The notes beneath the pieces were generated by a model, which saw only the letters and a list, made by a program, of their open reading frames with translations, had not been told where the DNA came from and searched no databases. A stretch of DNA of 64,000 nt, from the NCBI GenBank assembly GCA_964625685.1, contig CAZVBO010000003.1, positions 64,298 through 128,297 on the forward strand. The letters are read 5' to 3'. Numbering within the stretch: the first letter of the stretch is position 1; every line of letters begins with the position of its first letter. Origin of the DNA: an uncultured Pseudomonadales bacterium (GTDB lineage Bacteria > Patescibacteriota > Microgenomatia > UBA1400 > PJMF01). This document shows positions 2,989-63,743 of the stretch, piece after piece. Made by a program: the position numbers and the translations under genes.

Positions 2989-4011
2989 ATGGACGCGCAA
3001 CTAAGCAAAAGCAAGCCTCTCTGGTCAGTTTTCCTGATCGCATTGGGGTCAGCTCTGTTTCTGACCATCGAAAAAATCGTTGACAGTGTCATTAGCAATA
3101 ACTATGCCATTGCAAGCGATCCCATCACAGCGGCCTCAGCATACCTGTTTATCGGTGGCTGGTTTGGTCTGCTCGTTTCCATCGTTCTCGGTAAAGTTCT
3201 GGGTCGGCGTATTCCGGGTCACACCAAAATCGCCTTACCCAGCGCACTGCCGATGCGTCTTTCAGTTTTCGCTGGCATCTCGGCGGCCTTTGCCACTCTG
3301 CTGTTCCTCTGGGGCAATCAGCTCTTTGACCTCAGCATCATGGTAGCCATCTCAAACGGCTACGTATTGATGATCGTCATCTACGAGTGGATGGCTGGTA
3401 AGATCAAGGCTAACAAGTTCTTGCTCCCTGGCCTACTGACCGTGGTGAGCACGGTGCTTGTGGCATTCAACCCTGAGTGGTGGAATGACAGTGCGGTACT
3501 GCATGATGAAGCAGCGAAGTTGTTGATCATCTTCCTCGGCTTCAATCTGTTGGTCGCTTTTGATCGGCTGGTTACCAAGCCTGCCGTCGATCATAGCGAT
3601 CCCATCAATGTGCAGGTTGTCCGTATTGGTACACTCGCTATCACGGGGACTCTGTCTGCCTTCGTTTTGGCAATTACCCGTCAGGAATTCCCAGCCTTTG
3701 TGGAAGCATGTTCGAATATCATCACGTCTCCCGCTGTGTACTTCTTCCTGTTTTTGCTGTTCGCAGCAGTTTTTCTGGGCCAGGTTCTGGAACTGTGGGC
3801 GAAGCAGATCAACGTTGATGTATCCAGCATCGTGATCGTAATCGGACTCCATGTCGGTTTGGGATTTGTGGCCGCGTTGGTCATCGATGCCATTGCTCCC
3901 GGATTTGTAGGTGAGGTACCCGCAGAATGGACCACGCGAATCGTGCGCTTAATCGGTGTTGCCGGTTTGATCTTTGCCACTGTTCTCTTGCAGAACAAAA
4001 AGGCGAAGTAA
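2989..4011 (+). CDS. Polytopic integral membrane protein (~10 predicted TM helices), possible transporter; family unassigned
   Basis: 340-aa ORF with an AGGAG-like RBS (aaaaaggagaaaaac ATG). Hydrophobic helices throughout. GC-richer codon usage than the flanks. Confidence 0.55.
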   Translation: MDAQLSKSKPLWSVFLIALGSALFLTIEKIVDSVISNNYAIASDPITAASAYLFIGGWFGLLVSIVLGKVLGRRIPGHTKIALPSALPMRLSVFAGISAAFATLLFLWGNQLFDLSIMVAISNGYVLMIVIYEWMAGKIKANKFLLPGLLTVVSTVLVAFNPEWWNDSAVLHDEAAKLLIIFLGFNLLVAFDRLVTKPAVDHSDPINVQVVRIGTLAITGTLSAFVLAITRQEFPAFVEACSNIITSPAVYFFLFLLFAAVFLGQVLELWAKQINVDVSSIVIVIGLHVGLGFVAALVIDAIAPGFVGEVPAEWTTRIVRLIGVAGLIFATVLLQNKKAK

Positions 4012-39002: not shown

Positions 39003-40883
39003 TTATTTCGCTACTCTGAGTCCATTCCCGATTGCCAGCAATTCTCCCACCTCATGGACAGCAACGGCAATAGTAATTGTCATGATACCTGCTAAGGCCG
39101 AGGGAATAAGCGCAGCCAAAAGCAGAAGGGAGAATATAATATTCTGTCTGCTGATAGCGCGTGCCTTCTTGCCAAGCTCAATCGCATAAGCAACTTTAGT
39201 AATATCATCACTCATCAAAGCTACATCCGCTGCTTCAATTGCCGCATCAGCCCCAGCAGTTCCCATTGCCATGCCGACTGTCGCGGTAGCGAGGGCTGGG
39301 GCATCGTTGACTCCATCGCCAATCATCACAACATCTTGGTATTCCTTTTTAAGTTCGTTAATCGCGGCAATTTTATCTTCTGGTTTGAGATTCGCTCGCA
39401 CATCATCCATATCAAGTTCTTTTGCAATTGCCTTAGCTGTGACTTCATTATCTCCCGTGAGCATTGCTACTTTTACTCCCATGTGATGAAGTTCCTCAAT
39501 GACTGCTTTTGCTTGCTCCCGTATTTCATCTCGGATCGCTAGCGCTCCCAGAATACTACTTTTGCCACCGACATAAATAACCGTTTTTCCATCCTGTCGC
39601 AACCTATCCATTTTGGCAATGAATCCCTTGTCTGCGTTTTCAAATAACTCTTGTTTGCCTACCTGAATAATTTGTTTTCCAACTTTCGCTACCGCGCCAG
39701 CTCCCGTCAGAGCTTTGAATGATTCTGTTTTTTTTAAATCTATGTCCATTTCTTTTGCTTTTGCAACAACAGCCCGCGCCAGCGGATGTTCTGAAAACTG
39801 CTCTAAACTCGCCGCGAGTTTTAACACCTCTGTCTCACTACCGTTGACTGCTGCGATATCTGTTACTACTGGTTTTCCAAGTGTGAGTGTTCCTGTTTTG
39901 TCAAAGGCAACTGCTTGGATTTTGCCAACATTTTCTAAATGCATACCACCTTTTATAAGCACCCCATTTTTACCGGCTGTTCCTATGCCGGTAGCGACAG
40001 CGACCGGTGTTGACATGACAAGTGCACAAGGAGCAGCGGCTACCAAAAAAACGATCGCTCGCTCTGCCCAAAGAGAAAATGAGAGCCCGAACAAAGGAGG
40101 CAAAACAAGAAGCAACAATCCCACTAATAATACGATAGGAGAGTACTTCTCGCCAAACCTTTCAATAAAGACTTGAGCCTTGCTCTTTTTATCTTGGGCC
40201 TCTTCAACTAGATGTACCATTTTGGACAACGTATTATCTGCAAATGCAGCTGTCACTTTTATTTCCAAAACACCTTCTTGGTTTATAGTAGCGGCGTAAG
40301 CCTTCATGCCCACTTCTTTTTCAACCGGAATAGACTCGCCTGTAACTGGTGCTTCGTTGATGCTGGATGATCCTTTTACAATCACTCCGTCAGTTGGCAG
40401 GGATTCACCAGGACGAACAATAAAAATGTCATCGACTTGTAATTTTGTTGCTGCAATCGTTGCCTCCTTTCCATTTTTTAGAACCCGCGCTTTTTTCGGA
40501 GCGAGATCCAACAACTTTCGAATCGACGCTCGGGTTCTGGCGAAAGTATAACCCTCTAACCCTTCTGCCGCCCCATAGATGAATACCAGTAGCGCCGCTT
40601 CTTCCCAGAGACCTAAGACTCCTGCTCCGATTGCTGCGGCCAGCATCAACAGTTCAATATCTACTTCTTTGCAATGAATCAATTCATCGATGCCTTCTTT
40701 TGCCCAGTAATAACCACCTATTATCATCGCGGTGATATACAAAATCGTTGAAAAGTACGCCTGGATAACGCCAAAGCGGAATAAAAAATACGATACGCCA
40801 ATTATTGCCCCTGCGATAAGAGCATTTCGCATCTGCGGATAGGTATACCATTTGTACTCAGTAATCGATTCTCTTTTACTCAT
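39003..40883 (-). CDS. P1B-type heavy-metal ATPase without an N-terminal metal-binding domain (APC TM motif)
   Basis: AAAPCALVMSTP, DKTGTLT, GDGVNDAPAL. Start taken at MSKRESITEY to avoid overlap with arsR. Confidence 0.75.
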   Translation of the reverse strand: MSKRESITEYKWYTYPQMRNALIAGAIIGVSYFLFRFGVIQAYFSTILYITAMIIGGYYWAKEGIDELIHCKEVDIELLMLAAAIGAGVLGLWEEAALLVFIYGAAEGLEGYTFARTRASIRKLLDLAPKKARVLKNGKEATIAATKLQVDDIFIVRPGESLPTDGVIVKGSSSINEAPVTGESIPVEKEVGMKAYAATINQEGVLEIKVTAAFADNTLSKMVHLVEEAQDKKSKAQVFIERFGEKYSPIVLLVGLLLLVLPPLFGLSFSLWAERAIVFLVAAAPCALVMSTPVAVATGIGTAGKNGVLIKGGMHLENVGKIQAVAFDKTGTLTLGKPVVTDIAAVNGSETEVLKLAASLEQFSEHPLARAVVAKAKEMDIDLKKTESFKALTGAGAVAKVGKQIIQVGKQELFENADKGFIAKMDRLRQDGKTVIYVGGKSSILGALAIRDEIREQAKAVIEELHHMGVKVAMLTGDNEVTAKAIAKELDMDDVRANLKPEDKIAAINELKKEYQDVVMIGDGVNDAPALATATVGMAMGTAGADAAIEAADVALMSDDITKVAYAIELGKKARAISRQNIIFSLLLLAALIPSALAGIMTITIAVAVHEVGELLAIGNGLRVAK

Positions 40884-47123: not shown

Positions 47124-48119
47124 TCAATGAGAAGATGAAAGCGAAAAAGAAGCGGGCACTAAGGGAGTAAAATTATGTGTATCTTTGGTCTCATGACCGG
47201 AGCAATCAGTGGTTTGACATCCCTCTTCCACCCTACAAACACCACCCGTTTCAAAAGCAAATTCAGCAGCTACCTGACTTGGCTGAACAATGGCAATTCC
47301 CAACATTAGGGCTAGGCTAAATATACTCACGGACAATGGCTTCATGCCAATCCGCTCAAACGAGAGCTTGTTGCCTACCAAAGATTCAACTCGTCTTTCA
47401 ATCGGCGAGGTGGCAAAGTGCGGAAAAGAGTCGCCAGCATACTGTAAATTCAGCGCCAGTGAGCCACACAGATGGTCCCGTGTTTTTTGCTTATCAACCA
47501 CGAAGGCATCTGCCGCTAATTCAAACTCAGTCCTCAGCTCTCGAGCCAGGTGCTCAATCAGCGGAATAAAGAAAAACAGAGAACTGATCAATCTGGAGAA
47601 CAGTAGCCATAAGACATGATTGCTTCGAAGATGATACAACTCATGGAGAATCACCGCTTCCAATTGTTCTCTTGAGAGTTTTTGGATTAACAACCGAGAA
47701 ACAACAATTTTGGGTTTAATTAAACCAATAGTATATGCACTCAATTTACCACCTTTGACTACTAAAATTGTCTTTTCTGTAAGGTCGTGCTTATTTATGA
47801 TCCACTGCAACTTGTCGGGTGTTCTCTCGATCGCCCTGAGTTGGTGTAGTCGCCGGTGAGCTATCAAAAACCGTACCAATTGCCGCAATGCCAAGCCAAC
47901 TCCAACGGCAGCAATCAGCAATACGAACGAGGACACTACGCCGTCAGGATTAAAGTGAATGTGTTCGCCGACATCCTTCAGGATTTCACCACAGGCAGTA
48001 ATGAAAAACTGAGGATGCAGACTGGTTTTAGTAGCTAGCAAATATGATCCCAGCAAAAAGATGGCGCTTGAGACGACTACGAATATGGTAAATAGATTAA
48101 TCCTTATTTTTATTCTCAT
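47124..48119 (-). CDS. M56-family (BlaR1/MecR1-like) zinc metalloprotease signal transducer with a short Cys-rich C-terminal tail
   Basis: HELYHL (HExxH). N-terminal TM helices. C-terminal TM then CRVEEGCQTTDCSGH. No beta-lactam sensor domain. Confidence 0.6.
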   Translation of the reverse strand: MRIKIRINLFTIFVVVSSAIFLLGSYLLATKTSLHPQFFITACGEILKDVGEHIHFNPDGVVSSFVLLIAAVGVGLALRQLVRFLIAHRRLHQLRAIERTPDKLQWIINKHDLTEKTILVVKGGKLSAYTIGLIKPKIVVSRLLIQKLSREQLEAVILHELYHLRSNHVLWLLFSRLISSLFFFIPLIEHLARELRTEFELAADAFVVDKQKTRDHLCGSLALNLQYAGDSFPHFATSPIERRVESLVGNKLSFERIGMKPLSVSIFSLALMLGIAIVQPSQVAAEFAFETGGVCRVEEGCQTTDCSGHETKDTHNFTPLVPASFSLSSSH

Positions 48120-48520
48120 TTTTTCTGTAATTTCTCTATTAGCTTCTGGCGAGTATCTTCTGAGATATCATCCAAACCGTCCACAAAAGCAATCAAAGCT
48201 TCCTCACCAAACTGGCCAGTGAAGTTTCCCATTGTCTGATTAATCAGGGATGACAAAATGTTTTTTTGCTTGGCTGCCGGTTTATAGACATGAGTTTTGC
48301 CCTGCAATTTTCTTTTAAGCAACCCTTTGTCCACCAAGCGGGTCATGATGGTTTGCACGGTGTTGTAAGCGATCTCCCGATCCTGGCTAATACAATCCAC
48401 AATATCTCTGGCCGTACAGGTTTTCTTTTCCCAAATACAAGCCATCACTTCCTGCTCCAGCGGTCCCAAAGAAACTTTTTTCATACCTACAAGTGTAGGA
48501 CTAAATACACAATATTTCAA
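48116..48520 (-). CDS. BlaI/MecI/CopY-family transcriptional repressor
   Basis: LGPLEQEVMACIWEKKTCTARDIV...YNTVQTIMTRLVDKGLL. Start overlaps the M56 gene. Confidence 0.7.
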   Translation of the reverse strand: MKYCVFSPTLVGMKKVSLGPLEQEVMACIWEKKTCTARDIVDCISQDREIAYNTVQTIMTRLVDKGLLKRKLQGKTHVYKPAAKQKNILSSLINQTMGNFTGQFGEEALIAFVDGLDDISEDTRQKLIEKLQKK

Positions 48521-48639
48521 CGAGAATTAAGTAAATACTTAGTTGCTTACATTAGTAAACATAAATCACCACAAAGTTTATTGAGATAAACATAAGACTC
48601 CCGCTAGGCTGGACATAGTTAATTCCAATTTGAATTTCT

Positions 48640-48894
48640 ATGTCACAGCCAAAACCTGCCACTTACCTTACCAGCGATCTTGCTCTCGCTACCACTATCT
48701 CCCTCAACTTTCCCATTGAAGATATTGATCGAACCAATCCGCGCAAAGCGGTTTTTGTGTTTCGCAGGTCTCCAGAACTAGAGGAGCTTGTTGATTCTTA
48801 CTTCTCCAATCAGCTTAAGGTCTCACCACAAGTCTTTTTCAACCAATTGCGCGATGTCAAAGCCAGATTATATGCGGAAAAACGACCATGGTAA
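48640..48894 (+). CDS. Hypothetical protein (84 aa)
   Basis: ORF only. Confidence 0.3.
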   Translation: MSQPKPATYLTSDLALATTISLNFPIEDIDRTNPRKAVFVFRRSPELEELVDSYFSNQLKVSPQVFFNQLRDVKARLYAEKRPW

Positions 48895-49059
48895 GCCGAC
48901 AACTATTACTCGAGCTGAAGAAAATTATTGAAGAAGACTATGGAATCAAATTGACCTTGGCCGAAGTGATGGAAGTAGCCACTACATTGGTGGACTTTGC
49001 AGAAACGGCCATGAAGATTGAAGCCAAGCCCGATACCTCATAAAGAGCTTGGTTAATAA

Positions 49060-49557
49060 ATGAAAATGAAAATGTCAAAACAACCACCAACAGACAACCT
49101 GTACCTCCAAATCTGGAGAAATCCTATCTTCAAGGAACTTCTTTTAGCGCAGGTAACAGCCGATCAATGGCATACTTTCACTGCTTTGGCAGTCTTCATG
49201 AACAAAAAGGGTGAGTGTTATCCCTCTCAAAACAGACTCAAACAAATTCTTGGTTTAAATAGCGTGGCCAGTGTAAGCAGAAGAATTATTTCTTTGGAGA
49301 AAGCCCGTTTCAAAGGCGAGCCTCTGATTACAGTCTTTCGAGATAAAAAGATGAAACGTAAAGGTAAATTCCTCTTTGCCAGCAATGGCTACCAACTCAA
49401 CCAAAACATCATCACTATCTTCGCTCCGCATGACACCACCGTCGCACGGAGACAACAACAAATGGAAGATTTTCAAGCAAACAAGGCTAATCTCGTCAAT
49501 AGATTGCACATCAATGCGTCACGGAAAGACGATAAACAAACTAGAAGGAGTTTTTAA
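49060..49557 (+). CDS. Winged-HTH protein of the phage/plasmid replication-initiator-associated type
   Basis: ...CYPSQNRLKQILGLNSVASVSRRIISLEKARF.... Confidence 0.4.
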   Translation: MKMKMSKQPPTDNLYLQIWRNPIFKELLLAQVTADQWHTFTALAVFMNKKGECYPSQNRLKQILGLNSVASVSRRIISLEKARFKGEPLITVFRDKKMKRKGKFLFASNGYQLNQNIITIFAPHDTTVARRQQQMEDFQANKANLVNRLHINASRKDDKQTRRSF

Positions 49558-49586
49558 CAAAAAATTTAACGAAAACAGCGCCGTTT

Positions 49587-50012
49587 ATGAAAGACAAATC
49601 AGTAGCAAAACCAACAGAAAAACTTATAAGGAAGATTGGTCAATTCTTGGTCAAAAATTGGTCGACTTTTCAGGGTGGGCAGCATGTGGGCAAAATGAGG
49701 GCAGATTTAGAGGAGTTTAAGGCTAAACAGGGTGTACAAAAGGTGGACAGAAATAGGACAGAAAACCTGCACCAACTCTTCGTCAAAACTGCGCCAACTA
49801 AGGTTCACCGGTGCTTCACTGAAACTTCACCGGATTTTGGAAGCTTTAGCCTAAAAACCCTTCGGTATGGTGACGGTGAAATGTCGGTGGTTTTTGACCC
49901 TTCATTTGTCCTGTTTCCGCGTATAGCCCAGTATATGCGGAAAGTCCTGATTCAATTTGATATTCCCTCGAGTTACCTATATGTTGTTGTGTTGAAAAGA
50001 GTCTGCCTATGA
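49587..50012 (+). CDS. Hypothetical protein (141 aa)
   Basis: ORF whose stop overlaps the recombinase start. Confidence 0.3.
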   Translation: MKDKSVAKPTEKLIRKIGQFLVKNWSTFQGGQHVGKMRADLEEFKAKQGVQKVDRNRTENLHQLFVKTAPTKVHRCFTETSPDFGSFSLKTLRYGDGEMSVVFDPSFVLFPRIAQYMRKVLIQFDIPSSYLYVVVLKRVCL

Positions 50013-51595
50013 AAAGCGTTATATTCTGCCGAGTCTCCAGCAAAGAACAAGAAGAAACGGGCTACTCCCTCCCGGCGCAGGAGAAGTTCCTGCGAGAATA
50101 TGGCGACAAGCAAGGCTTGGAGGTTAAAAAGGTCTTTGCCATCTCTGAGTCTGCAGCAGGCAAAAGCCAACGCAAGGTCTTTGAGGAAATGATCGCCTAT
50201 GTCAGAAAACAAAATATTTGTGCCATCATTGTCGAAACCACGGACCGTTTAACCCGTAACTTCTCTGATGTGCCCACCATCGACCTCTGGATCACCGAGA
50301 GTGAAGAACACCAAATCCACTTGGCCAAAGAAGCCTGCATCTTGCACAACTCTTCCCGCTCACACGAATGGTTTATGTGGCGAGTCAAAGTTGCTACCGC
50401 TGAATATTATGTCCGCCTGCTTTCCGAGAACGTTAAGAAGGGACAAAAAGAAAAACTGGCTCAGGGCTGGCTGCCAACCAGACCACCACTAGGATATAAA
50501 ACCGTTGGCGAAACCGGTCACAAGATCCACATTGTTGATGAAGGTGCTTCTAAACTAGTGATCAAGATGTTTGAACTTTATGCCTCCGGCGATTATTCCA
50601 TCAAGAAACTGGCCAACACCATGTATCAAGAAGGCATGAGATCTCCTCAGGGCAACAGGCTGGCCATCAGCCGAACTCACTCCCTACTGCGCGATCCTTT
50701 CTATATGGGTAAGATTAGATGGAATGATGAAATTTACGAAGGCAAACAAGAGCCATTAATCAGTAAAGAATTATTTGATAAGGTTCAGAAGTTACTTAAA
50801 AGCAAAACCACTCCCACTTATATGAAACACAGCTACTTATTCAAAGGCTTAATTCGCTGCACTACCTGCAAAGGGCTGATTACCTGGGAACTACACCGAG
50901 GTCATCGCTACGGACACTGCAACCACTACAACAAATGCCCTCAGAAAACATGGGTTAAGGAGCCTGGGACCGAAGAACAACTCTTGAGAGGATTTGAGAA
51001 TCTAAGAATTAAGAACAAACGAGTCACCGAATGGCTCAAAAAAGCACTCAAGGAAAGCCATCAGGACGAAGTCCAGTATCACAACAGCACTGTGGGCGAA
51101 CTAGAAACCCGCTATGAGGCGGTTAGTAGACGAATGGACAAGTTATACGATGACAAACTTGATGAAAAAATCACTCAGGAGTTTTATAACCGTAAGTTTA
51201 AGCAGTACTCCAAAGAAAAAGACGAACTCACCGAAACCATTAAACGCCACTCCACCGCCAGCACAGGTTATCTTAACCTAGGCATTAATCTATACGAACT
51301 CTCGCAACGAGCCAAAGAAATCTACCTCACTGCCAAAAAGAAGGACATGCTGGACGAACAACGCGCCCTTATCAGACTGGTATTCAAAAAGCTCATCTTA
51401 GACGAAGGCAAACTCAGCTGGGAGTACTCCCGAGCCTTTAAGATCCTGTCTGAGGCAGTAAGTCAGACAAATTGTTCTAAAGTGGAAAATTTGGAGGGTT
51501 TGGAAAAAGAAACTTTCGAACATCACGAAAAGAGCGATGTTACGGGACAAAAAGACTCTTTGTCGCCCTCTCATCCCATCTGGCTCCCCGAGTAG
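50009..51595 (+). CDS. Large serine recombinase (second copy)
   Basis: VIFCRVSSKEQ, resolvase domain, recombinase domain, zinc ribbon CTTCKG...HCNHYNKC, coiled coil. The last 15 nt overlap the tRNA-Asn 3' end. Confidence 0.85.
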   Translation: MKSVIFCRVSSKEQEETGYSLPAQEKFLREYGDKQGLEVKKVFAISESAAGKSQRKVFEEMIAYVRKQNICAIIVETTDRLTRNFSDVPTIDLWITESEEHQIHLAKEACILHNSSRSHEWFMWRVKVATAEYYVRLLSENVKKGQKEKLAQGWLPTRPPLGYKTVGETGHKIHIVDEGASKLVIKMFELYASGDYSIKKLANTMYQEGMRSPQGNRLAISRTHSLLRDPFYMGKIRWNDEIYEGKQEPLISKELFDKVQKLLKSKTTPTYMKHSYLFKGLIRCTTCKGLITWELHRGHRYGHCNHYNKCPQKTWVKEPGTEEQLLRGFENLRIKNKRVTEWLKKALKESHQDEVQYHNSTVGELETRYEAVSRRMDKLYDDKLDEKITQEFYNRKFKQYSKEKDELTETIKRHSTASTGYLNLGINLYELSQRAKEIYLTAKKKDMLDEQRALIRLVFKKLILDEGKLSWEYSRAFKILSEAVSQTNCSKVENLEGLEKETFEHHEKSDVTGQKDSLSPSHPIWLPE

Positions 51596-51655
51596 GATTC
51601 GAACCTACAACCTTGAAGTTAACAGCTTCCTGCTCTGCCATTGAGCTATCGGGGA
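51581..51655 (-). tRNA. tRNA-Asn (anticodon GTT), encoded CCA
   Basis: Manual cloverleaf. Acceptor UCCCCGA/UCGGGGA, D stem GCUC/GAGC, anticodon loop CU-GUU-AA, T arm GGUUCGAAUCC. Starts with U like E. coli tRNA-Asn. Confidence 0.75.
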
Positions 51656-56334: not shown

Positions 56335-57408
56335 TCAACTTTTTTGATTCATTTCCAGCCACTTTTCGGCATCCAGTGACGCCGCTGTGCCTTGACCAGC
56401 GGATGTAATGGCTTGCTTGTAGCGTAAATCAACCACATCGCCAGCTGCAAACACACCTGGCACTGAAGTCATACTGGGATAGACAATCAGTCCCTCTTCA
56501 TTCAAAGCTTGTTGGGCCATCGTCACCCCAGCTTGACTGGCACTTTGAGGCGTAACTACATAACCATGAGCATCTAACTCTACCTGACCTTGAAATAACT
56601 GAGTCAAAGGTTTGTGGCCAATCGCATAAAATAAACCATCAGTCGGCACGACTCGAGGTTCTTGACCCATAGTTTCTAACTTAATTTGCGTTAATTTGGT
56701 ATCTCCCAAGGCTTCGACCACTTGAGTATTCCACAAGACCTCCACTTTAGGATGATTGAGTACTCGCTCCTGCATGATTTTACTGGCTTTAAAACTATCG
56801 CGGCGATGGACCACTTTAACTTCTTTAGCAAACTTAGTCAGAGCCAACGTATCTTCCATGGCACTATCTCCACCACCCACCACATAAGCTACTTTATCTT
56901 TATAAAAAGCGGCATCACAGACAGCACAAGTAGCAATCCCTTTCCCAAAAAACTGATCTTCTCCAGGGATTCCTAACATGATAGCGGCGGCGCCAGTGGA
57001 GATGATCACACTTTCTGCTTCAAAGCCAGGTGGTTGCTCCATCACCTGCTGGCGAAAATCCTTCATTTGGTCAGGCGTTAAGTACTCAAACTGAGTCGGA
57101 TCAAATTTATCAGGTAAGTTGGTCCAAACTTTGAACGGCCGCTGTGAAAAATCGACCGCACTCACCCACGCATCCACGATCTGCGTTTCAAACCGAGCGG
57201 CTTGTTCGCGCATCTCAATCATTAAATCAGGTCCATTTTTGCCTTCCTTAAATCCAGGAAAGTTTTCAACTACGCCGGTATTCATTAATTGACCACCAGA
57301 TTTTAAGCCCCCAATTAAGATAGGGGCCAGCTTGGCCCGGCCGGCATATATGCCAGCCGTAAAGCCAGCTGGCCCCGAACCAATAATTAACAACTTTGTT
57401 TTTTGCAT
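56335..57408 (-). CDS. trxB: Thioredoxin-disulfide reductase
   Basis: N-terminal GSGPAG FAD motif. Redox-active CAVCD. 357 aa, slightly long for the family. Confidence 0.85.
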   Translation of the reverse strand: MQKTKLLIIGSGPAGFTAGIYAGRAKLAPILIGGLKSGGQLMNTGVVENFPGFKEGKNGPDLMIEMREQAARFETQIVDAWVSAVDFSQRPFKVWTNLPDKFDPTQFEYLTPDQMKDFRQQVMEQPPGFEAESVIISTGAAAIMLGIPGEDQFFGKGIATCAVCDAAFYKDKVAYVVGGGDSAMEDTLALTKFAKEVKVVHRRDSFKASKIMQERVLNHPKVEVLWNTQVVEALGDTKLTQIKLETMGQEPRVVPTDGLFYAIGHKPLTQLFQGQVELDAHGYVVTPQSASQAGVTMAQQALNEEGLIVYPSMTSVPGVFAAGDVVDLRYKQAITSAGQGTAASLDAEKWLEMNQKS

Positions 57409-57767
57409 ACTTTATTCCTTTGGCTTTTAATATATTCTTGAACCGCTTGTTCAACACCTTCTAAATTTCTTTTAACTTCGTTATCAGCAAATCGCAAAAA
57501 ATGCAATCCTACTTGCTCTAATCTAATTTGTCTTACCTCATCATAATCTCCTTTATAATCATGACTGTCTCCATCGATTTCTATAACTAACTGAAGTTTT
57601 TGACAATAGAAATCTACAATGTAATTCAATAAAGGTTTTTGGCGATTAAAAGTATATCCTCCAATTTTGGTCTTTAAGACCTGCCAAAGTAAAATTTCAG
57701 AAAGAGTACTTTGGTTTCGTAATTTTCTTGCTTTTGTTTTTAATGTTGGATTGTAATAAATTCGCAT
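57387..57767 (-). CDS. DUF559 (Vsr/restriction-endonuclease-like fold) domain protein
   Basis: ...YTFNRQ...IVDFYC...LVIEIDG.SH...D..R...L...G...LRF. Start at MRIYYNPT behind an AGAGG RBS. Overlaps the trxB start by 22 nt. Confidence 0.5.
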   Translation of the reverse strand: MRIYYNPTLKTKARKLRNQSTLSEILLWQVLKTKIGGYTFNRQKPLLNYIVDFYCQKLQLVIEIDGDSHDYKGDYDEVRQIRLEQVGLHFLRFADNEVKRNLEGVEQAVQEYIKSQRNKVCKKQSC

Positions 57768-57775
57768 AGGATAAA

Positions 57776-57829
57776 TGCCTCTGTCTGGATTTCTCCAGAC
57801 GTCTCCTCTTAGAAAGAGGAGATTTTGAG
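57776..57829. repeat. Structured element X, copy A: two consecutive hairpins (TCTGGA-TTTC-TCCAGA and TCTCCTCTT-AGAA-AAGAGGAGA)
   Basis: The second copy at 60873-60925 has compensatory changes in hairpin 1 (TCTCGCTATCGCTAGA). Confidence 0.5.
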
Positions 57830-57865
57830 TTAATTTATCTCTCATGTATTACAACAAAGTGACCT

Positions 57866-57932
57866 AGTCCCCTTTTCCTAAAAGGGGCATCAAGTCAGGC
57901 ACTTCAAAGTGCATGACCTGATGGGGCATTTA
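57866..57932. repeat. Structured element Y, copy A (CCCCTTTTCCTAAAAGGGG hairpin, then CATCAAGT...ACCTGATGGGGCATTT)
   Basis: The second copy at 60813-60866 has conserved flanks and a variable middle. Confidence 0.5.
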
Positions 57933-58286
57933 CTCTAATGCTTTATCAAGCATCTCTCTGTATCCATCCTCCCCAGGAAAACCAATTTTCCGGTCAACTT
58001 CTTCCATTTGATCACCTTTTTTCTTCATTACCACCACCGTCGGAATACTCATTACTCCAAACTGACCAGCCACATCTCGATTTTCATCCACATCAAGTTT
58101 GGCAATCACAGCTTTGCCTGCATACTCACCAGCCAACTTGTCTACAATGGGAGCTGCCATTTTACAAGGACCACACCATTGGGCAAAAAAATCAATGAAC
58201 ACTGGTTGATCTCCAGCATCTTTTAAGGTTTGTTTGAAGGTGTCTTCGCTTAAGTGAAGAGCGCCTTTCTGAGTATTATCGGCCAT
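57930..58286 (-). CDS. trxA: Thioredoxin
   Basis: WCGPCK active site. 118 aa. AAGGAGG RBS. Confidence 0.85.
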   Translation of the reverse strand: MADNTQKGALHLSEDTFKQTLKDAGDQPVFIDFFAQWCGPCKMAAPIVDKLAGEYAGKAVIAKLDVDENRDVAGQFGVMSIPTVVVMKKKGDQMEEVDRKIGFPGEDGYREMLDKALE

Positions 58287-58288
58287 AG

Positions 58289-58328
58289 AGCCTCCTTATT
58301 AATATTTAATGATTAATGTCTAATGTCT
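58289..58328. repeat. Heptad (TAATGnn / CAnTAAy)n tract immediately upstream of trxA
   Basis: TTAATGATTAATGTCTAATGTCTAATGTCTAAC, 7-bp periodicity. Related tracts at 58428-58458, 60575-60624, 60780-60808, 60988-61019 and 63680-63715. Confidence 0.6.
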
Positions 58329-58458
58329 AATGTCTAACACTGGATTGTCATTCCCGCGAAGGCGGGAATCCATACTTATTTAACTTGCCCTAGATTCTGA
58401 GTTAAACTCAGGATGACAGTTAAACTGTAAACATTAACCAATAATCATTAGTCACTAA

Positions 58459-58746
58459 TTAGTATCTAAATACTTCCTTTAGAATCTCATCCAAATCACC
58501 CAGCCGGCGTTCTTTGGAACAATGACTGGCTTCACTGGTCAGTAAGTCCCGAGCCACTCGGCCCAGCGAACTGCGAGCCGCAATCACTTGCCGCACAATA
58601 TCCACACAGGCTCTTTCATCTTCATACATCTTAATCACGCCGTCAAGCTGACCTCGGATTCTCTTGAGTTGAGTCAGCGTTTGATCAGAACTTGCAGCCG
58701 GCGAGTTTTTAGCAGCCGTTAATTTCAGTTTCATCATGGCTCTCAT
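58459..58746 (-). CDS. CsoR/RcnR-family (DUF156) metal-sensing repressor
   Basis: ...LKRIRGQLDGVIKMYEDERACVDIVRQVIAARSSLGRVARDLL..SHC. Confidence 0.55.
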   Translation of the reverse strand: MRAMMKLKLTAAKNSPAASSDQTLTQLKRIRGQLDGVIKMYEDERACVDIVRQVIAARSSLGRVARDLLTSEASHCSKERRLGDLDEILKEVFRY

Positions 58747-58789
58747 GATACCCCTAGGGGGTATGTAGTGTCAATGGGAAAAGGGGCGA

Positions 58790-60571
58790 TTAGTTTTTGC
58801 GTTTTAATAACACAATTTGTTTTAATAGCTCAGATTGGCGAGCTTCTTCTTGAGGAGTTTTTTCAGCCTTAGCATCCAGCTGATCCAGTTCATGAGTGAT
58901 CTGAGCCACTGCTTCTGCCACTGAGAGCGCCTTCAAATCTTTGAGGGTGTTATCCCACTCTTTCTCGAGGTCTAATTCATCGACAATTTCAATATAGTCA
59001 GGCTGAAGATAAACTTCAGACACCAACTGTTGTTGATCTTCTGGCAGTTGCTTCATAAACTGGGTCAAATCAAAGCTACTAGACTGCTTTTCTAAAGTTT
59101 GAACCAGTGGTTTGACACCTATTTTTTTCCATCGCAAATTTTTTAGTTCAGATACTCGATGAGTCTCAAACGGCATTCGAAAGAATAAGAAGAGAATATA
59201 ACTTTCCAGTCTTTCCCGGCGAGTTTGAGGCTGGTCTTTTTCCACTGGTTCAACTGAAGTAGCAGCTTTTTTAGAACTAGCAAAAAGCGTCGTTTTATCT
59301 TTAAAGGTGTCAATATCTTTCCGCACCACTTCATCTTTGACTCCCAAAACTTGAGCCAACTTTTTAATGTAAAAATCTTGTTCCACCGCATGAGGAATAC
59401 TGCCAAAGATAGGTGCTAACTCATCAATGATTTGCCGTTTTCCTTCTGGAGTTTGGGTGCCATATTGATTGACTGCATTTTGCAAAAAGAATTCGTAGAC
59501 CGAGACAGAAGTTTTGGTGGCTTCTCGCCACGCTTTCGGATCAGTTTTGGCTAGCTCATCCGGATCTTTACCTGAGGGTAACTTCAAAACTCGTAGCTCA
59601 ATTTCAAACTCGCGAGCTAAAGTAATGGCTCTCTTGGTTGCTTCTCGGCCAGCACTATCCATGTCGAGACTTAACAATACTTTTTTGACCGTTCGCCGCA
59701 GTAACTGCAATTGTTCTCGAGTCAAAGCCGAACCTTTAATCGCTACAATCTGATTCACATGCGCCTGAGTCGAGGAAATAACATCTAGTTCTCCCTCAGC
59801 CACAATTACTTCCTGAGCTTGACGAATGTGCTGGTAGAGCTGAGAGTAGCCAAACAACAATTCTGACTTGTGATACAGCATCGTTTCCGGACTATTAATA
59901 TACTTAGCTTCTTTAACATCTTTTTTCAAAGTCCGACCAGAAAAGCCAACAATTTGCCCTCGAGCATTAGTCAGTGGAAACATGACTCGATCTCGAAATC
60001 GATCGTAATACCGACCATTTCGGCCTTTAATAATCAAACCAGCCGCTTCTAAATCAGCTAAACTATACTTTTTCTTTTGATGCAAGTATTTAATTAAGCC
60101 ATCCCAACCAGGCAAAGCATACCCCATCTGGAAAATTTTGATCGATTCTTTGACAATTCCCCGTTGATGGAGATACTCCCGGGCTGGTTCACCTGCCGGG
60201 TGAGTGGTTAGTAGATAGTGATAGTATTCTTTGGTTAAATCTAAAATATCCAGCAGTCGTTCTCTTTGTTCGTCCTGAGGAGTAGCTTGATAGTCTTTGA
60301 GCTCAATCCCGGCCCGATCAGCTAAATACTTCAAACTTTCGTAAAAGCTCATCCCTTCATACTTTTCTAAAAAGTTAAATACATCACCTGATTCTCCACA
60401 GCCAAAACAGCGATAGCGTTGGAGCTGTTCATTCACAAAAAAAGAGGGTGACTTTTCACTATGAAAAGGACACAATCCTTTGTAATTGACTCCAGATCGT
60501 TTGAGTTCAACTCGCTCCCCAATGATCTGGACGATATCGCTGGCATCTTTGACTTGTTTGGCTTGGGACAT
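58790..60571 (-). CDS. dnaG: DNA primase
   Basis: Zinc-binding CPFHSEKSPSF...CFGCGESGD and TOPRIM EGELDVIS...DMDSAG. 593 aa. Confidence 0.9.
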   Translation of the reverse strand: MSQAKQVKDASDIVQIIGERVELKRSGVNYKGLCPFHSEKSPSFFVNEQLQRYRCFGCGESGDVFNFLEKYEGMSFYESLKYLADRAGIELKDYQATPQDEQRERLLDILDLTKEYYHYLLTTHPAGEPAREYLHQRGIVKESIKIFQMGYALPGWDGLIKYLHQKKKYSLADLEAAGLIIKGRNGRYYDRFRDRVMFPLTNARGQIVGFSGRTLKKDVKEAKYINSPETMLYHKSELLFGYSQLYQHIRQAQEVIVAEGELDVISSTQAHVNQIVAIKGSALTREQLQLLRRTVKKVLLSLDMDSAGREATKRAITLAREFEIELRVLKLPSGKDPDELAKTDPKAWREATKTSVSVYEFFLQNAVNQYGTQTPEGKRQIIDELAPIFGSIPHAVEQDFYIKKLAQVLGVKDEVVRKDIDTFKDKTTLFASSKKAATSVEPVEKDQPQTRRERLESYILFLFFRMPFETHRVSELKNLRWKKIGVKPLVQTLEKQSSSFDLTQFMKQLPEDQQQLVSEVYLQPDYIEIVDELDLEKEWDNTLKDLKALSVAEAVAQITHELDQLDAKAEKTPQEEARQSELLKQIVLLKRKN

Positions 60572-60574
60572 GGT

Positions 60575-60624
60575 TTAATGATTAATGTTTATTGGTTATT
60601 GATTATTGATTATTGTTTAATTTC
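60575..60624. repeat. Heptad (CAATAAT-like)n tract abutting the dnaG start codon
   Basis: Gene-sense ATTAAACAATAATCAATAATCAATAACCAATAAACATTAATCATTAAACC-ATG. No Shine-Dalgarno sequence. Confidence 0.6.
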
Positions 60625-61033
60625 ACAATCTCAAGATGTTAGTTTTTTTCCCTTAACTTGGAATTTGCCTGCCTGCGCAGACAGGTTTGGATTTTGGAAT
60701 TTGGAATTTATAGCCTCATTATCAAGTATACCTTATTTCTTGCAACTAACAATCAAAACCCGAATGGAAAAGCAAGTGATTAGTGTCTAATGTTTAATGG
60801 TTAATGACAAATCCCCTTTTTCTAAAAGGGGCATCAAGTGAGTGAAACGAACCTGATGGGGCATTTCAGTAATGGCTTAAACACCTCTGTCTCGCTATCG
60901 CTAGACTTCTCCTCTTTGATAAGAGGAGATTTTCTATTTATTCTTCGCATACCATTCACAACTGACACGAAATACTGGCACTAATCACTAACCAATAAAC
61001 AATAACCATTCGCTTCCCTGTTATAATGAAGGT

Positions 61034-63249: not shown

Positions 63250-63687
63250 TTAGCTCATATTCTGGCCAGACAAAAAGCCAAACCAATTAGTACCGTCAGG
63301 AGAGAAAAAACCAATAACATCAATCGCCCCTATTGCGGTTGAGAGAGTAGGATCATTGCCATTATCCCATTTCACTTCTGAAGGCCAGGTGATAGTATAA
63401 CTACCAGAACCACCTTGTTTCACAACTACAGTCAGTGATTGTCCAGCCACAGCAGTGGGGAAAGTAAGAGTACAATTTTGAGTTAGAGTTAAATAATGAA
63501 TTCCAGCACTGGTTGGTGCTGGCAGAGTATAAGAAGCACCTGCATCTGATTGAGTATTCACGACATCAGTAACAAGTCCAGTGGAAAGACCATGGGTTCC
63601 ATCTGAGTTATGCTCAACTTCCAGAAACTCATTTAAAACTGTTCCCCAGTTGCCATCATCTCCATTTACGGTTGGTAGTCTTGCCAT
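63250..63687 (-). CDS. Hypothetical protein (145 aa), possible surface or structural partner of the SGNH protein
   Basis: ORF 5 nt upstream of the SGNH gene. Gly/Thr-rich. Confidence 0.35.
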   Translation of the reverse strand: MARLPTVNGDDGNWGTVLNEFLEVEHNSDGTHGLSTGLVTDVVNTQSDAGASYTLPAPTSAGIHYLTLTQNCTLTFPTAVAGQSLTVVVKQGGSGSYTITWPSEVKWDNGNDPTLSTAIGAIDVIGFFSPDGTNWFGFLSGQNMS

Positions 63688-63743
63688 ACTTTAATGATTA
63701 TTGGCTAATGGTTAATGGTTAATCCTACCAATGCTGATAGGAT

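Follow-up and report, generated by a model that had tools for sequence, protein, structure and literature searches.

Structured repeats X and Y in a Patescibacteria genome are probably the ends of a small DUF559 nuclease cassette

A 64,000 nt stretch of the genome of an uncultured bacterium placed in the Patescibacteriota (contig CAZVBO010000003.1, positions 64,298 to 128,297; in the following, the window) contains two structured intergenic elements, X and Y, one pair on the 3′ side of trxA and one pair upstream of dnaG. Our data make it likely that a small cassette, which encodes a DUF559 (PF04480) nuclease and was inserted into intergenic spacers, has X and Y as its structured terminal repeats. 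The architecture of the elements, their adjacency to DUF559, the inverted flanking of such a gene, the absence in relatives and the recurrence across phyla are established. From these we infer that the cassette is, or formerly was, mobile as a unit and, by analogy to known systems, that the nuclease may act on its own hairpin ends.

A preliminary description of the window had reported X and Y as two families of elements in the order X-Y on the 3′ side of trxA and Y-X upstream of dnaG. Both repeats are real, with two copies each and only at these two places in the 64 kb, and the order was given correctly. X2 had been placed at 60873-60925, which is about 7 nt off the core at 60879-60933. The division into two families did not stand, since X and Y represent one architecture in opposite orientation with complementary inner tails and are read as partner ends.

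Read on the minus strand, X consists of AAAA, hairpin A (TCTCCTCTT/AAGAGGAGA), hairpin B (variable stem, GNRA loop) and the box AGAGG(C/T)(A/G)TTT. Y, read on the plus strand, consists of hairpin A (CCCCTTTT/AAAAGGGG), hairpin B (CATCAAGT...ACCTGATG) and GGGGCATTT. Common to both is a hairpin A whose 5′ arm is C-rich and whose 3′ arm (G1) is purine-rich, followed by a variable hairpin B and by a G2 box, which repeats the 3′ arm of hairpin A and terminates in GGCATTT or GGTGTTT. The G boxes resemble Shine-Dalgarno (SD) sequences, the C arms anti-SD sequences. X1 and X2 are 78% identical over 54 nt and have the same hairpin A arms, a pattern for which 0.02 matches were expected by chance in shuffled sequence. 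Y1 and Y2 share two identical 16-mers, AAAAGGGGCATCAAGT and ACCTGATGGGGCATTT. X1 and Y1 were identical across all strain contigs. A generic detector for a purine-armed hairpin with a repeat of the 3′-arm core (G2) within 50 nt downstream gave five matches on both strands of the window. Four were the two X copies (minus strand) and the two Y copies (plus strand), and the fifth probably arose by chance. An X-like 24 nt match at 39820 lies inside the open reading frame (ORF) of a P-type ATPase and was dismissed as chance.

X1 is separated by 5 nt from the ATG of a gene for a Vsr-like PD-(D/E)XK nuclease, for which both the PF04480 assignment and the fold of PDB 3hrl were confirmed. A search with this protein led to a second locus outside the window (L012), which was assigned to the same genome (same Logan sample series) and encodes a DUF559 paralogue with 62% identity. 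Here a third X copy, X3, follows the stop codon of the pyruvate formate-lyase (PFL) gene and extends to 1 nt from the DUF559 ATG. Its hairpin A is identical to that of X1 and X2, the 5′ extension is missing, and hairpin B shows two further pairing-preserving changes and a GAGA loop. Identity among the X copies amounts to 71-80%, compared to 65% for the two DUF559 ORFs. The G2 box of X is located 6-10 nt 5′ of the DUF559 ATG and is probably the ribosome-binding site of DUF559.

The paralogous ORF is closed by an inverted motif, Z3 (hairpin A TCCCCTCTT/AAGAGGGG, hairpin B, AGGGGGTGTTT), which aligns with Y and overlaps the last codons. The generic detector also found X3 and Z3. Altogether X3-DUF559-Z3 occupies 466 nt between the PFL and PFL-AE genes, and G1 of Z3 lies 8 nt 5′ of the ATG of the downstream host gene. 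Since X abuts DUF559 at two sites and an inverted Y-like motif closes the second of them, X is the 5′ end and Y the 3′ end, and the full unit, as far as it is read from the sequence, is X(+) - DUF559 - Y/Z(-). Putative ribosome-binding sites within the cassette may allow it to sit inside operons without polarity.

Coding explanations were considered for both ends. An extended ORF of 152 aa covers X1, but homologues begin at the internal ATG, gene callers pick the 126 aa form, and X3 comes after a stop codon. For Y, a small ORF on the minus strand (MPHQV...LMPLLGKGD) had seemed conceivable, the 9 nt length difference between the copies being in frame. It was rejected because Z3 has AAACACCCCC where Y has AAATGCCCC, which leaves no start codon.

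At copy 2, read on the gene-sense strand, X2(+), 12 nt and Y2(-) follow each other, i.e., a unit without a gene. The inverted copies bound a non-coding segment, with about 120 nt from core to core and about 120-155 nt for the unit, and copy 2 is a gene-less doublet similar to miniature inverted-repeat transposable elements (MITEs) or to REPINs, the doublets of repetitive extragenic palindromes (REP). Copy 1 reads Y1(-), 41 nt that are mostly 5′ extension of the X1/X2 type, X1(+) and DUF559. The 3′ end of this ORF overlaps the start of trxB by 22 nt (57387-57408), and the 3′ motif is gone. Considering this overlap and the C-terminus (..KSQRNKVCKKQSC), which bears no relation to the C-termini that the motif encodes in other DUF559 genes, the sequence suggests that the 3′ end of the cassette was removed by a deletion and that DUF559 was thereby fused to trxB. 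Copy 1 would then represent a solo Y followed by an X1-DUF559 element whose own 3′ end is lost and which now continues into trxB. Two other explanations for the arrangement were discarded. An inversion of the trxA-dnaG segment does not account for the swapped order, as the X copies are mutually direct repeats and the Y copies likewise. X2 and Y1 are not the ends of a composite element with dnaG-csoR-trxA, as relatives without X and Y show the same gene order.

In one such relative (L101, TrxB 91% identical) the order dnaG-csoR-trxA-trxB is found without DUF559, X and Y, and the trxA-trxB spacer is an unrelated sequence of 149 nt. A second one (L102, TrxB 70% identical) has mazG-dnaG-csoR-trxA-trxB, again without DUF559, X and Y; here trxA and trxB overlap by 4 nt, and the mazG-dnaG spacer comprises 65 nt (3118-3182) versus 462 nt in the window (60572-61033). 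For the second locus, a relative with 74% identical PFL-AE (L107) has TAA, 9 nt and ATG between the PFL and PFL-AE genes, versus the 466 nt mentioned above. No palindrome is present at this empty site, which implies that the repeats arrived together with the gene. Judged by these gene-order comparisons, X and Y are insertions and not conserved host regulators. The organism itself groups with the Patescibacteria by its TrxB protein.

To our knowledge, DUF559 is a very widespread bacterial nuclease domain, a large uncharacterised family without assigned function. We inspected 80 DUF559 loci from the genome collection (47-63% protein identity), 78 of which were evaluable; they stem from Bacteroidota, Ignavibacteria, Marinimicrobia, Patescibacteria, Nitrospirae and Proteobacteria. 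A motif at most 150 nt upstream and aimed at the gene was present in 54 of the 78 loci, an inverted motif at the stop codon in 50, and motifs on both sides of DUF559 in 37. The motif density upstream, estimated from counts, was about 38-fold above that elsewhere in the same loci. The 5′ flank aligned with the reverse-complemented 3′ flank (score >= 30) in 46% of the cases within the same locus and in 9% between loci (Mann-Whitney p = 1.7e-10), and compact units of 430-540 bp bounded by inverted repeats were found at 23 loci. About 80% of the copies have a single hairpin, in the form hairpin-TTA-GGGGTGGGT, while in about 10% the two G boxes are separated by a second hairpin, as in X and Y. The hairpin B sequences of these two-hairpin copies are mutually unrelated, yet they always fold.

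A covariance model built solely from 14 foreign two-hairpin copies was searched against 94 kb of this genome and its relatives. The top five matches were Z3, Y2, X2, X3 and Y1, all on the predicted strand, with weak E-values of 0.05-1.2. The exact X pattern had a single match in the viral collection, inside a phage ORF (L109), and the exact Y pattern had no match in the genome collection and none in the viral collection. One match to the Y pattern in the metagenome collection (L011) was discarded as an unrelated perfect hairpin on a high-GC contig with long low-complexity ORFs. As exact X and Y are absent elsewhere in public collections save for chance matches, the sequence variants are lineage-specific, and the architecture is widespread. 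DUF559 is among the gene families enriched for predicted inversions mediated by inverted repeats (PMC9881135), which fits inverted repeats that embrace DUF559 genes. Within the literature collection covered, searches on DUF559, PF04480 and the motif sequences revealed no description of DUF559-flanking repeats, and a search on Vsr together with REP or REP-associated tyrosine transposases (RAYT) returned only general REPIN/RAYT papers.

Single foreign loci show further variation. The unit of a member of the Magasanikbacteria (L036, 2917-3408) has hairpin A, the loop of hairpin B (GTCGCA) and G2 in common at its two ends, and the hairpin B stems differ (CCCCGC/GTGGGG versus CAGCC/GGCTG), so that structure is kept despite sequence change. 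Motif arrays occur downstream of DUF559 in Algoriphagus (L054, 3412-3944; tail-to-tail doublets with a period of 182 nt) and at two other loci (L088, 3371-3932; L099, 3365-3507), with periods including 135 nt (Chitinophagales) and 30 nt (tandem hairpins).

The preliminary description had put forward compensatory base changes, terminator, antiterminator or small RNA functions and, as another possibility, miniature mobile elements. Folding free energies of X1, X2 and Y1 were clearly below those of shuffled sequences on both strands (z -3.6 to -5.2), but Y2 folded weakly (plus strand z -1.0, minus strand z -1.9). Of the two pairs of the variable hairpin that differ between X1 and X2, one is indeed compensated (A-T to C-G), but the other becomes a C.T mismatch. 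With X3 included, 4 pairs of the stem are invariant, 2 are compensated and 1 cell is broken; this covariation goes in the right direction but is not significant, since 50 of 500 shuffles were equally good. The inner tails, AGAGGCATTT of X and AAATGCCCC of Y on the sense strand, are complementary. For the sense RNA of copy 1 a fold is predicted in which all four hairpins are closed by a tail-tail helix of 9 bp (z = -8.45), and this helix would pair the trxA stop region with the DUF559 ribosome-binding region. At copy 2 the adjacent tails are predicted to form a fifth hairpin. The loops of hairpin B on the sense strand of X are all GNRA (GAAA, GAUA and GAGA; 3/3 copies), and an A.C mismatch in hairpin B of Y, as read on the plus strand, corresponds to a G.U pair on the minus strand. 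Both features hint at an RNA role. As a test of RNA versus DNA function the G.U asymmetry was rejected as uninformative, because it follows the orientation of the G-rich motif at both gene ends and is composition-driven.

Such features would be expected if X and Y were host cis-regulatory RNA, i.e., a terminator, attenuator, mRNA stabiliser or translational coupler for trxA, DUF559/trxB and dnaG. Both elements would be co-transcribed with the neighbouring genes, all of which lie on the minus strand, Y2 is terminator-like on this strand, and the GNRA loops, the minus-strand G.U pair and the predicted pairing between the trxA stop codon and the DUF559 ribosome-binding site point in the same direction. 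We nevertheless consider a host function improbable. Relatives of the same gene order have the host genes but not the elements. The X hairpin with its T-run exists on the plus strand only, antisense to the neighbouring minus-strand genes, and the T-run is missing in X3. The G.U content tracks motif orientation and not transcript sense, and if there is an RNA effect, it more likely belongs to the cassette than to the host. A search against Rfam at the gathering threshold matched only a tRNA in the window and nothing relevant in 20 DUF559 loci; at E <= 10, X1/Y1 were overlapped only by a eukaryotic snoRNA model (E 1.8, far below its gathering score) and X2/Y2 by none. Less probable still is a plus-strand small RNA of about 125 nt which comprises Y2-X2 and ends at hairpin A of X2 and TTTT. 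On the plus strand an intrinsic terminator is scored for X2 hairpin A and the TTTTCTATTT that follows, and the region is a divergent intergenic spacer, but there is no convincing plus-strand promoter upstream of Y2 and no match to an Rfam family, the modules are reversed at copy 1, where the terminator would precede Y, and X3 has no T-run. The regulatory functions proposed in the preliminary description are therefore not borne out, whereas the absence of X and Y in same-order relatives, the two sites at which X abuts DUF559, the Y-like inverted motif that closes the second gene and the X2-Y2 geometry of a gene-less derivative support its suggestion of a mobile element.

Insertion could also have taken the opposite course, with X and Y as free-living REP-like palindromes, DUF559 genes inserting in or beside them, and X2-Y2 as an unoccupied target. 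Copies and arrays without a gene do exist elsewhere (the periods of 182 nt and 135 nt, L054 and L088, are examples), the background motif density in DUF559-bearing loci is not negligible at about 0.3 per kb when both strands are counted, and a group I intron homing endonuclease is among the functions listed for the Vsr/DUF559 group (PMC3424549). We regard this course as unlikely, since the empty PFL/PFL-AE site in L107 is a 9 nt spacer without a palindrome, the flanking copies within a locus are far more alike than those between loci, and the 3′ motif commonly overlaps the ORF end and supplies the last codons and the stop codon. A cassette with X and Y as its ends has to accommodate several points that weigh against it. 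X and Y are only 51-61% identical (57% for X2 versus Y2), their likeness being in architecture and tails. Y1 is located upstream of X1 and not 3′ of the gene, so that an additional step is needed, for instance a solo or tandem element together with a loss of the 3′ end. The genome was covered over 77 kb only, with 3 X and 3 Y/Z copies, and no target-site duplication was detected at the 23 well-bounded units or at the junctions of L012 and of the window. The foreign covariance model did not retrieve X1 at E <= 10, and its other E-values were marginal. The empty-site relatives are 9-30% diverged in protein and the filler in L101 measures 149 nt, so that exact junctions are unreadable. Finally, we know of no transposition or cleavage activity of DUF559.

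If X and Y are the ends of such a cassette, DUF559 might recognise or cut the hairpin ends in a manner similar to REP/RAYT systems, or promote homing-like copying. The 5′ end (X) would point into the gene and provide the G2 box as ribosome-binding site, and the 3′ end (Y, or Z3 at L012) would be a motif of the same kind in inverted orientation. When co-transcribed, the hairpins could also act as RNA by SD presentation and by tail-tail pairing.

By analogy, REP/RAYT appears to be the closest working model and homing the alternative. As in REP/REPIN-RAYT systems, a short palindromic hairpin carries a conserved single-stranded tail, inverted copies flank a nuclease gene (X3-DUF559-Z3, and units in other phyla), gene-less inverted doublets exist (X2-Y2), target-site duplications are missing and repeat variants are lineage-specific. 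In contrast to these systems, the enzyme is a DUF559 Vsr-like PD-(D/E)XK nuclease and not an HUH Y1 (IS200/IS605-like) transposase. REP sequences have GTAG before the palindrome; here GTAG is missing and the tail GGCATTT/GGTGTTT stands 3′ of the hairpins. The motif described here moreover contains a direct repeat of the 3′ arm (G1, G2), often split by a second hairpin, and REP sequences number tens to hundreds per genome, while the copy number is low so far in the 77 kb covered. The class appears to be an undescribed REP/RAYT-like variant built on a different nuclease fold.

MITEs such as the neisserial Correia elements are likewise small non-coding intergenic units that are bounded by inverted repeats, co-transcribed with their neighbours and present or absent between relatives, and the size of X2-Y2 is in keeping with this. 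They differ from the present elements, for which no target-site duplication was seen, whose ends are only 51-61% identical and whose presumed autonomous partner of about 0.45 kb encodes only a 120 aa nuclease and not a known transposase. With free-standing homing endonuclease genes the cassette has in common a small nuclease ORF wedged between linked conserved genes (trxA/trxB, PFL/PFL-AE), its absence from close relatives (L101, L102 and L107 are empty) and the protein fold; such genes, however, normally lack, and do not need, inverted structured repeats at both ends. The group I intron homing endonuclease listed for the Vsr/DUF559 group is, as we assume, I-Bth0305I. Intrinsic terminators have a G+C-containing stem and a T-run, as do X1 and X2 on the plus strand and Y2 on the minus strand. 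Unlike terminators, X is on the wrong strand for all its neighbours, the T-run is not conserved in X3, Y1 and Z3, a second hairpin and the G2 box are constant in the X and Y elements, and same-order relatives lack them.

A similar layout exists in Escherichia coli. The 3′ flank of the DUF559 gene ycjD (L111; K-12, NC_000913.3, 1351000-1352300) is a duplicated fragment of its own 3′ end, followed by G-box motifs including CCCCTCTGGGGAGAGGGTTAGGGTGAGGGG, and hairpin and repeated G boxes are arranged as described here, but at ycjD they do not flank the gene as a clean inverted pair. All 5,426 complete E. coli genomes contain the CCCCTCTGGGGAGAGGGTTAGGGTGAGGGG repeat, which is scattered over a median of 16 places per genome. 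It may be BoxC, an identification to be taken as a lead only. BoxC of E. coli is reported to comprise 56 bp and to occur in 22-32 copies (PMC2267715).

The pairing of DUF559 with inverted hairpin repeats leads to the concrete hypothesis that the nuclease binds or cuts the hairpins of these repeats. It would explain the origin of short G-rich palindromic repeats in Bacteroidota, Ignavibacteria, Marinimicrobia, the candidate phyla radiation (CPR) and possibly enterobacteria. A bolder view, which we put forward only tentatively and by analogy, is that DUF559 proteins mobilise or maintain hairpin repeats of a pan-bacterial class, in which units of 0.43-0.54 kb with a nuclease of about 120 aa would be the minimal autonomous elements and doublets of the X2-Y2 type the non-autonomous ones. 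If this is true, DUF559 and its repeats would form a REPIN/RAYT-like system with another catalytic fold, to which the BoxC repeats of E. coli and ycjD might belong. For genome annotation, such structures beside housekeeping genes would have to be regarded as inserted selfish DNA and not as host riboregulators.

The positions of the elements and of the neighbouring genes are summarized in Table 1.

Table 1. Positions in the window of elements X and Y, of neighbouring genes and of heptamer tracts.
Feature	Position	Strand	Remarks
trxB	56335-57408	minus	
DUF559 (PF04480) gene	57387-57767	minus	Vsr-like PD-(D/E)XK nuclease, 126 aa; ATG at 57767; between trxA and trxB
X1 core	57773-57826	minus	5′-end motif: AAAA, hairpin A, hairpin B, G2 box
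X1 G2 box	57773-57782	minus	AGAGGCATTT
X1 hairpin B	57783-57800	minus	GAAA loop
X1 hairpin A	57802-57822	minus	
X1 5′ extension	57827-57863	minus	GTCA..GTTGT.AAT..ATG.GA..ATAAAT; common to X1 and X2 (alignment)
Y1	57868-57931	plus	3′-end-type motif; head-to-head with X1
Y1 hairpin A	57869-57887	plus	CCCCTTTT-CCT-AAAAGGGG
Y1 hairpin B	57888-57923	plus	
Y1 G2 box	57923-57931	plus	GGGGCATTT; overlaps trxA stop codon
trxA	57930-58286	minus	stop codon 57930-57932
csoR	58459-58746	minus	
dnaG	58790-60571	minus	
Y2	60812-60866	plus	same architecture as Y1; tail-to-tail with X2, 12 nt between (60867-60878)
Y2 hairpin A	60813-60831	plus	
Y2 hairpin B		plus	stem CATCAAGT/ACCTGATG, 11 nt loop
Y2 G2 box	60858-60866	plus	
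X2 core	60879-60933	minus	no DUF559 gene after X2
X2 G2 box	60879-60888	minus	AGAGGTGTTT
X2 hairpin B	60889-60906	minus	GAUA loop, one A.G mismatch
X2 hairpin A	60908-60929	minus	
X2 5′ extension	60934-60966	minus	homologous to X1 extension (alignment)
mazG-like gene	starts 61034	plus	divergent from dnaG
Heptamer tract	58298-58332	minus	
Heptamer tract	58425-58459	plus	
Heptamer tract	60574-60622	minus	
Heptamer tract	60779-60806	minus	
Heptamer tract	60979-61013	plus	
Heptamer tract	63690-63724	minus	

Other small repeats are located in the same spacers. Comparison with the two relatives (L101, 1-440, and L102) revealed a conserved core in the dnaG-mazG spacer, a promoter-like ...TTGTTAGTTG...AAGGTATACT upstream of dnaG (window about 60725-60752); the rest of this spacer is repeat filler, including GGAATTTGGAATTT. 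The csoR-trxA spacer (58287-58458) comprises 172 nt in the window versus 18 nt in L101. Its extra block is bounded by inverted heptamer tracts and holds two more hairpins, GTCATTCCCGCGAAGGCGGGAATCC (ATTCCC-N8-GGGAAT, a form that we take to be that of neisserial dRS3) and CTGAGTTAAACTCAG. This block is a second family of small palindromic insertions. In a co-occurring strain variant (L010) an extra hairpin of 20 nt, CCTGCCCGCCGGCAGGCAGG, is inserted at about 58400 in the block and resembles GCCTGCCTGCGCAGACAGGT at 60668-60687 of the window. By insertions of the X, Y and DUF559 kind, spacers in this reduced CPR genome have been expanded from 0-65 nt to 460-520 nt.

The AT-rich heptamer tracts, (CATTAAN/CAATAAN)n of 28-49 nt, are restricted to the final 6 kb of the window. 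Of the six tracts, four abut a start codon or lie within about 25 nt upstream of one (trxA, dnaG, mazG and the ORF at 63250-63687), and such a tract also abuts the dnaG ATG in L101. The tracts may be a leader or standby-site element or a promoter element. At about 47900-51600 of the window a gene for a serine recombinase (Resolvase/Recombinase, 528 aa) is found beside small helix-turn-helix and DUF5659 genes and a GIY-YIG gene, close to a tRNA-Asn (51581-51655), and this region may be an integrated element.

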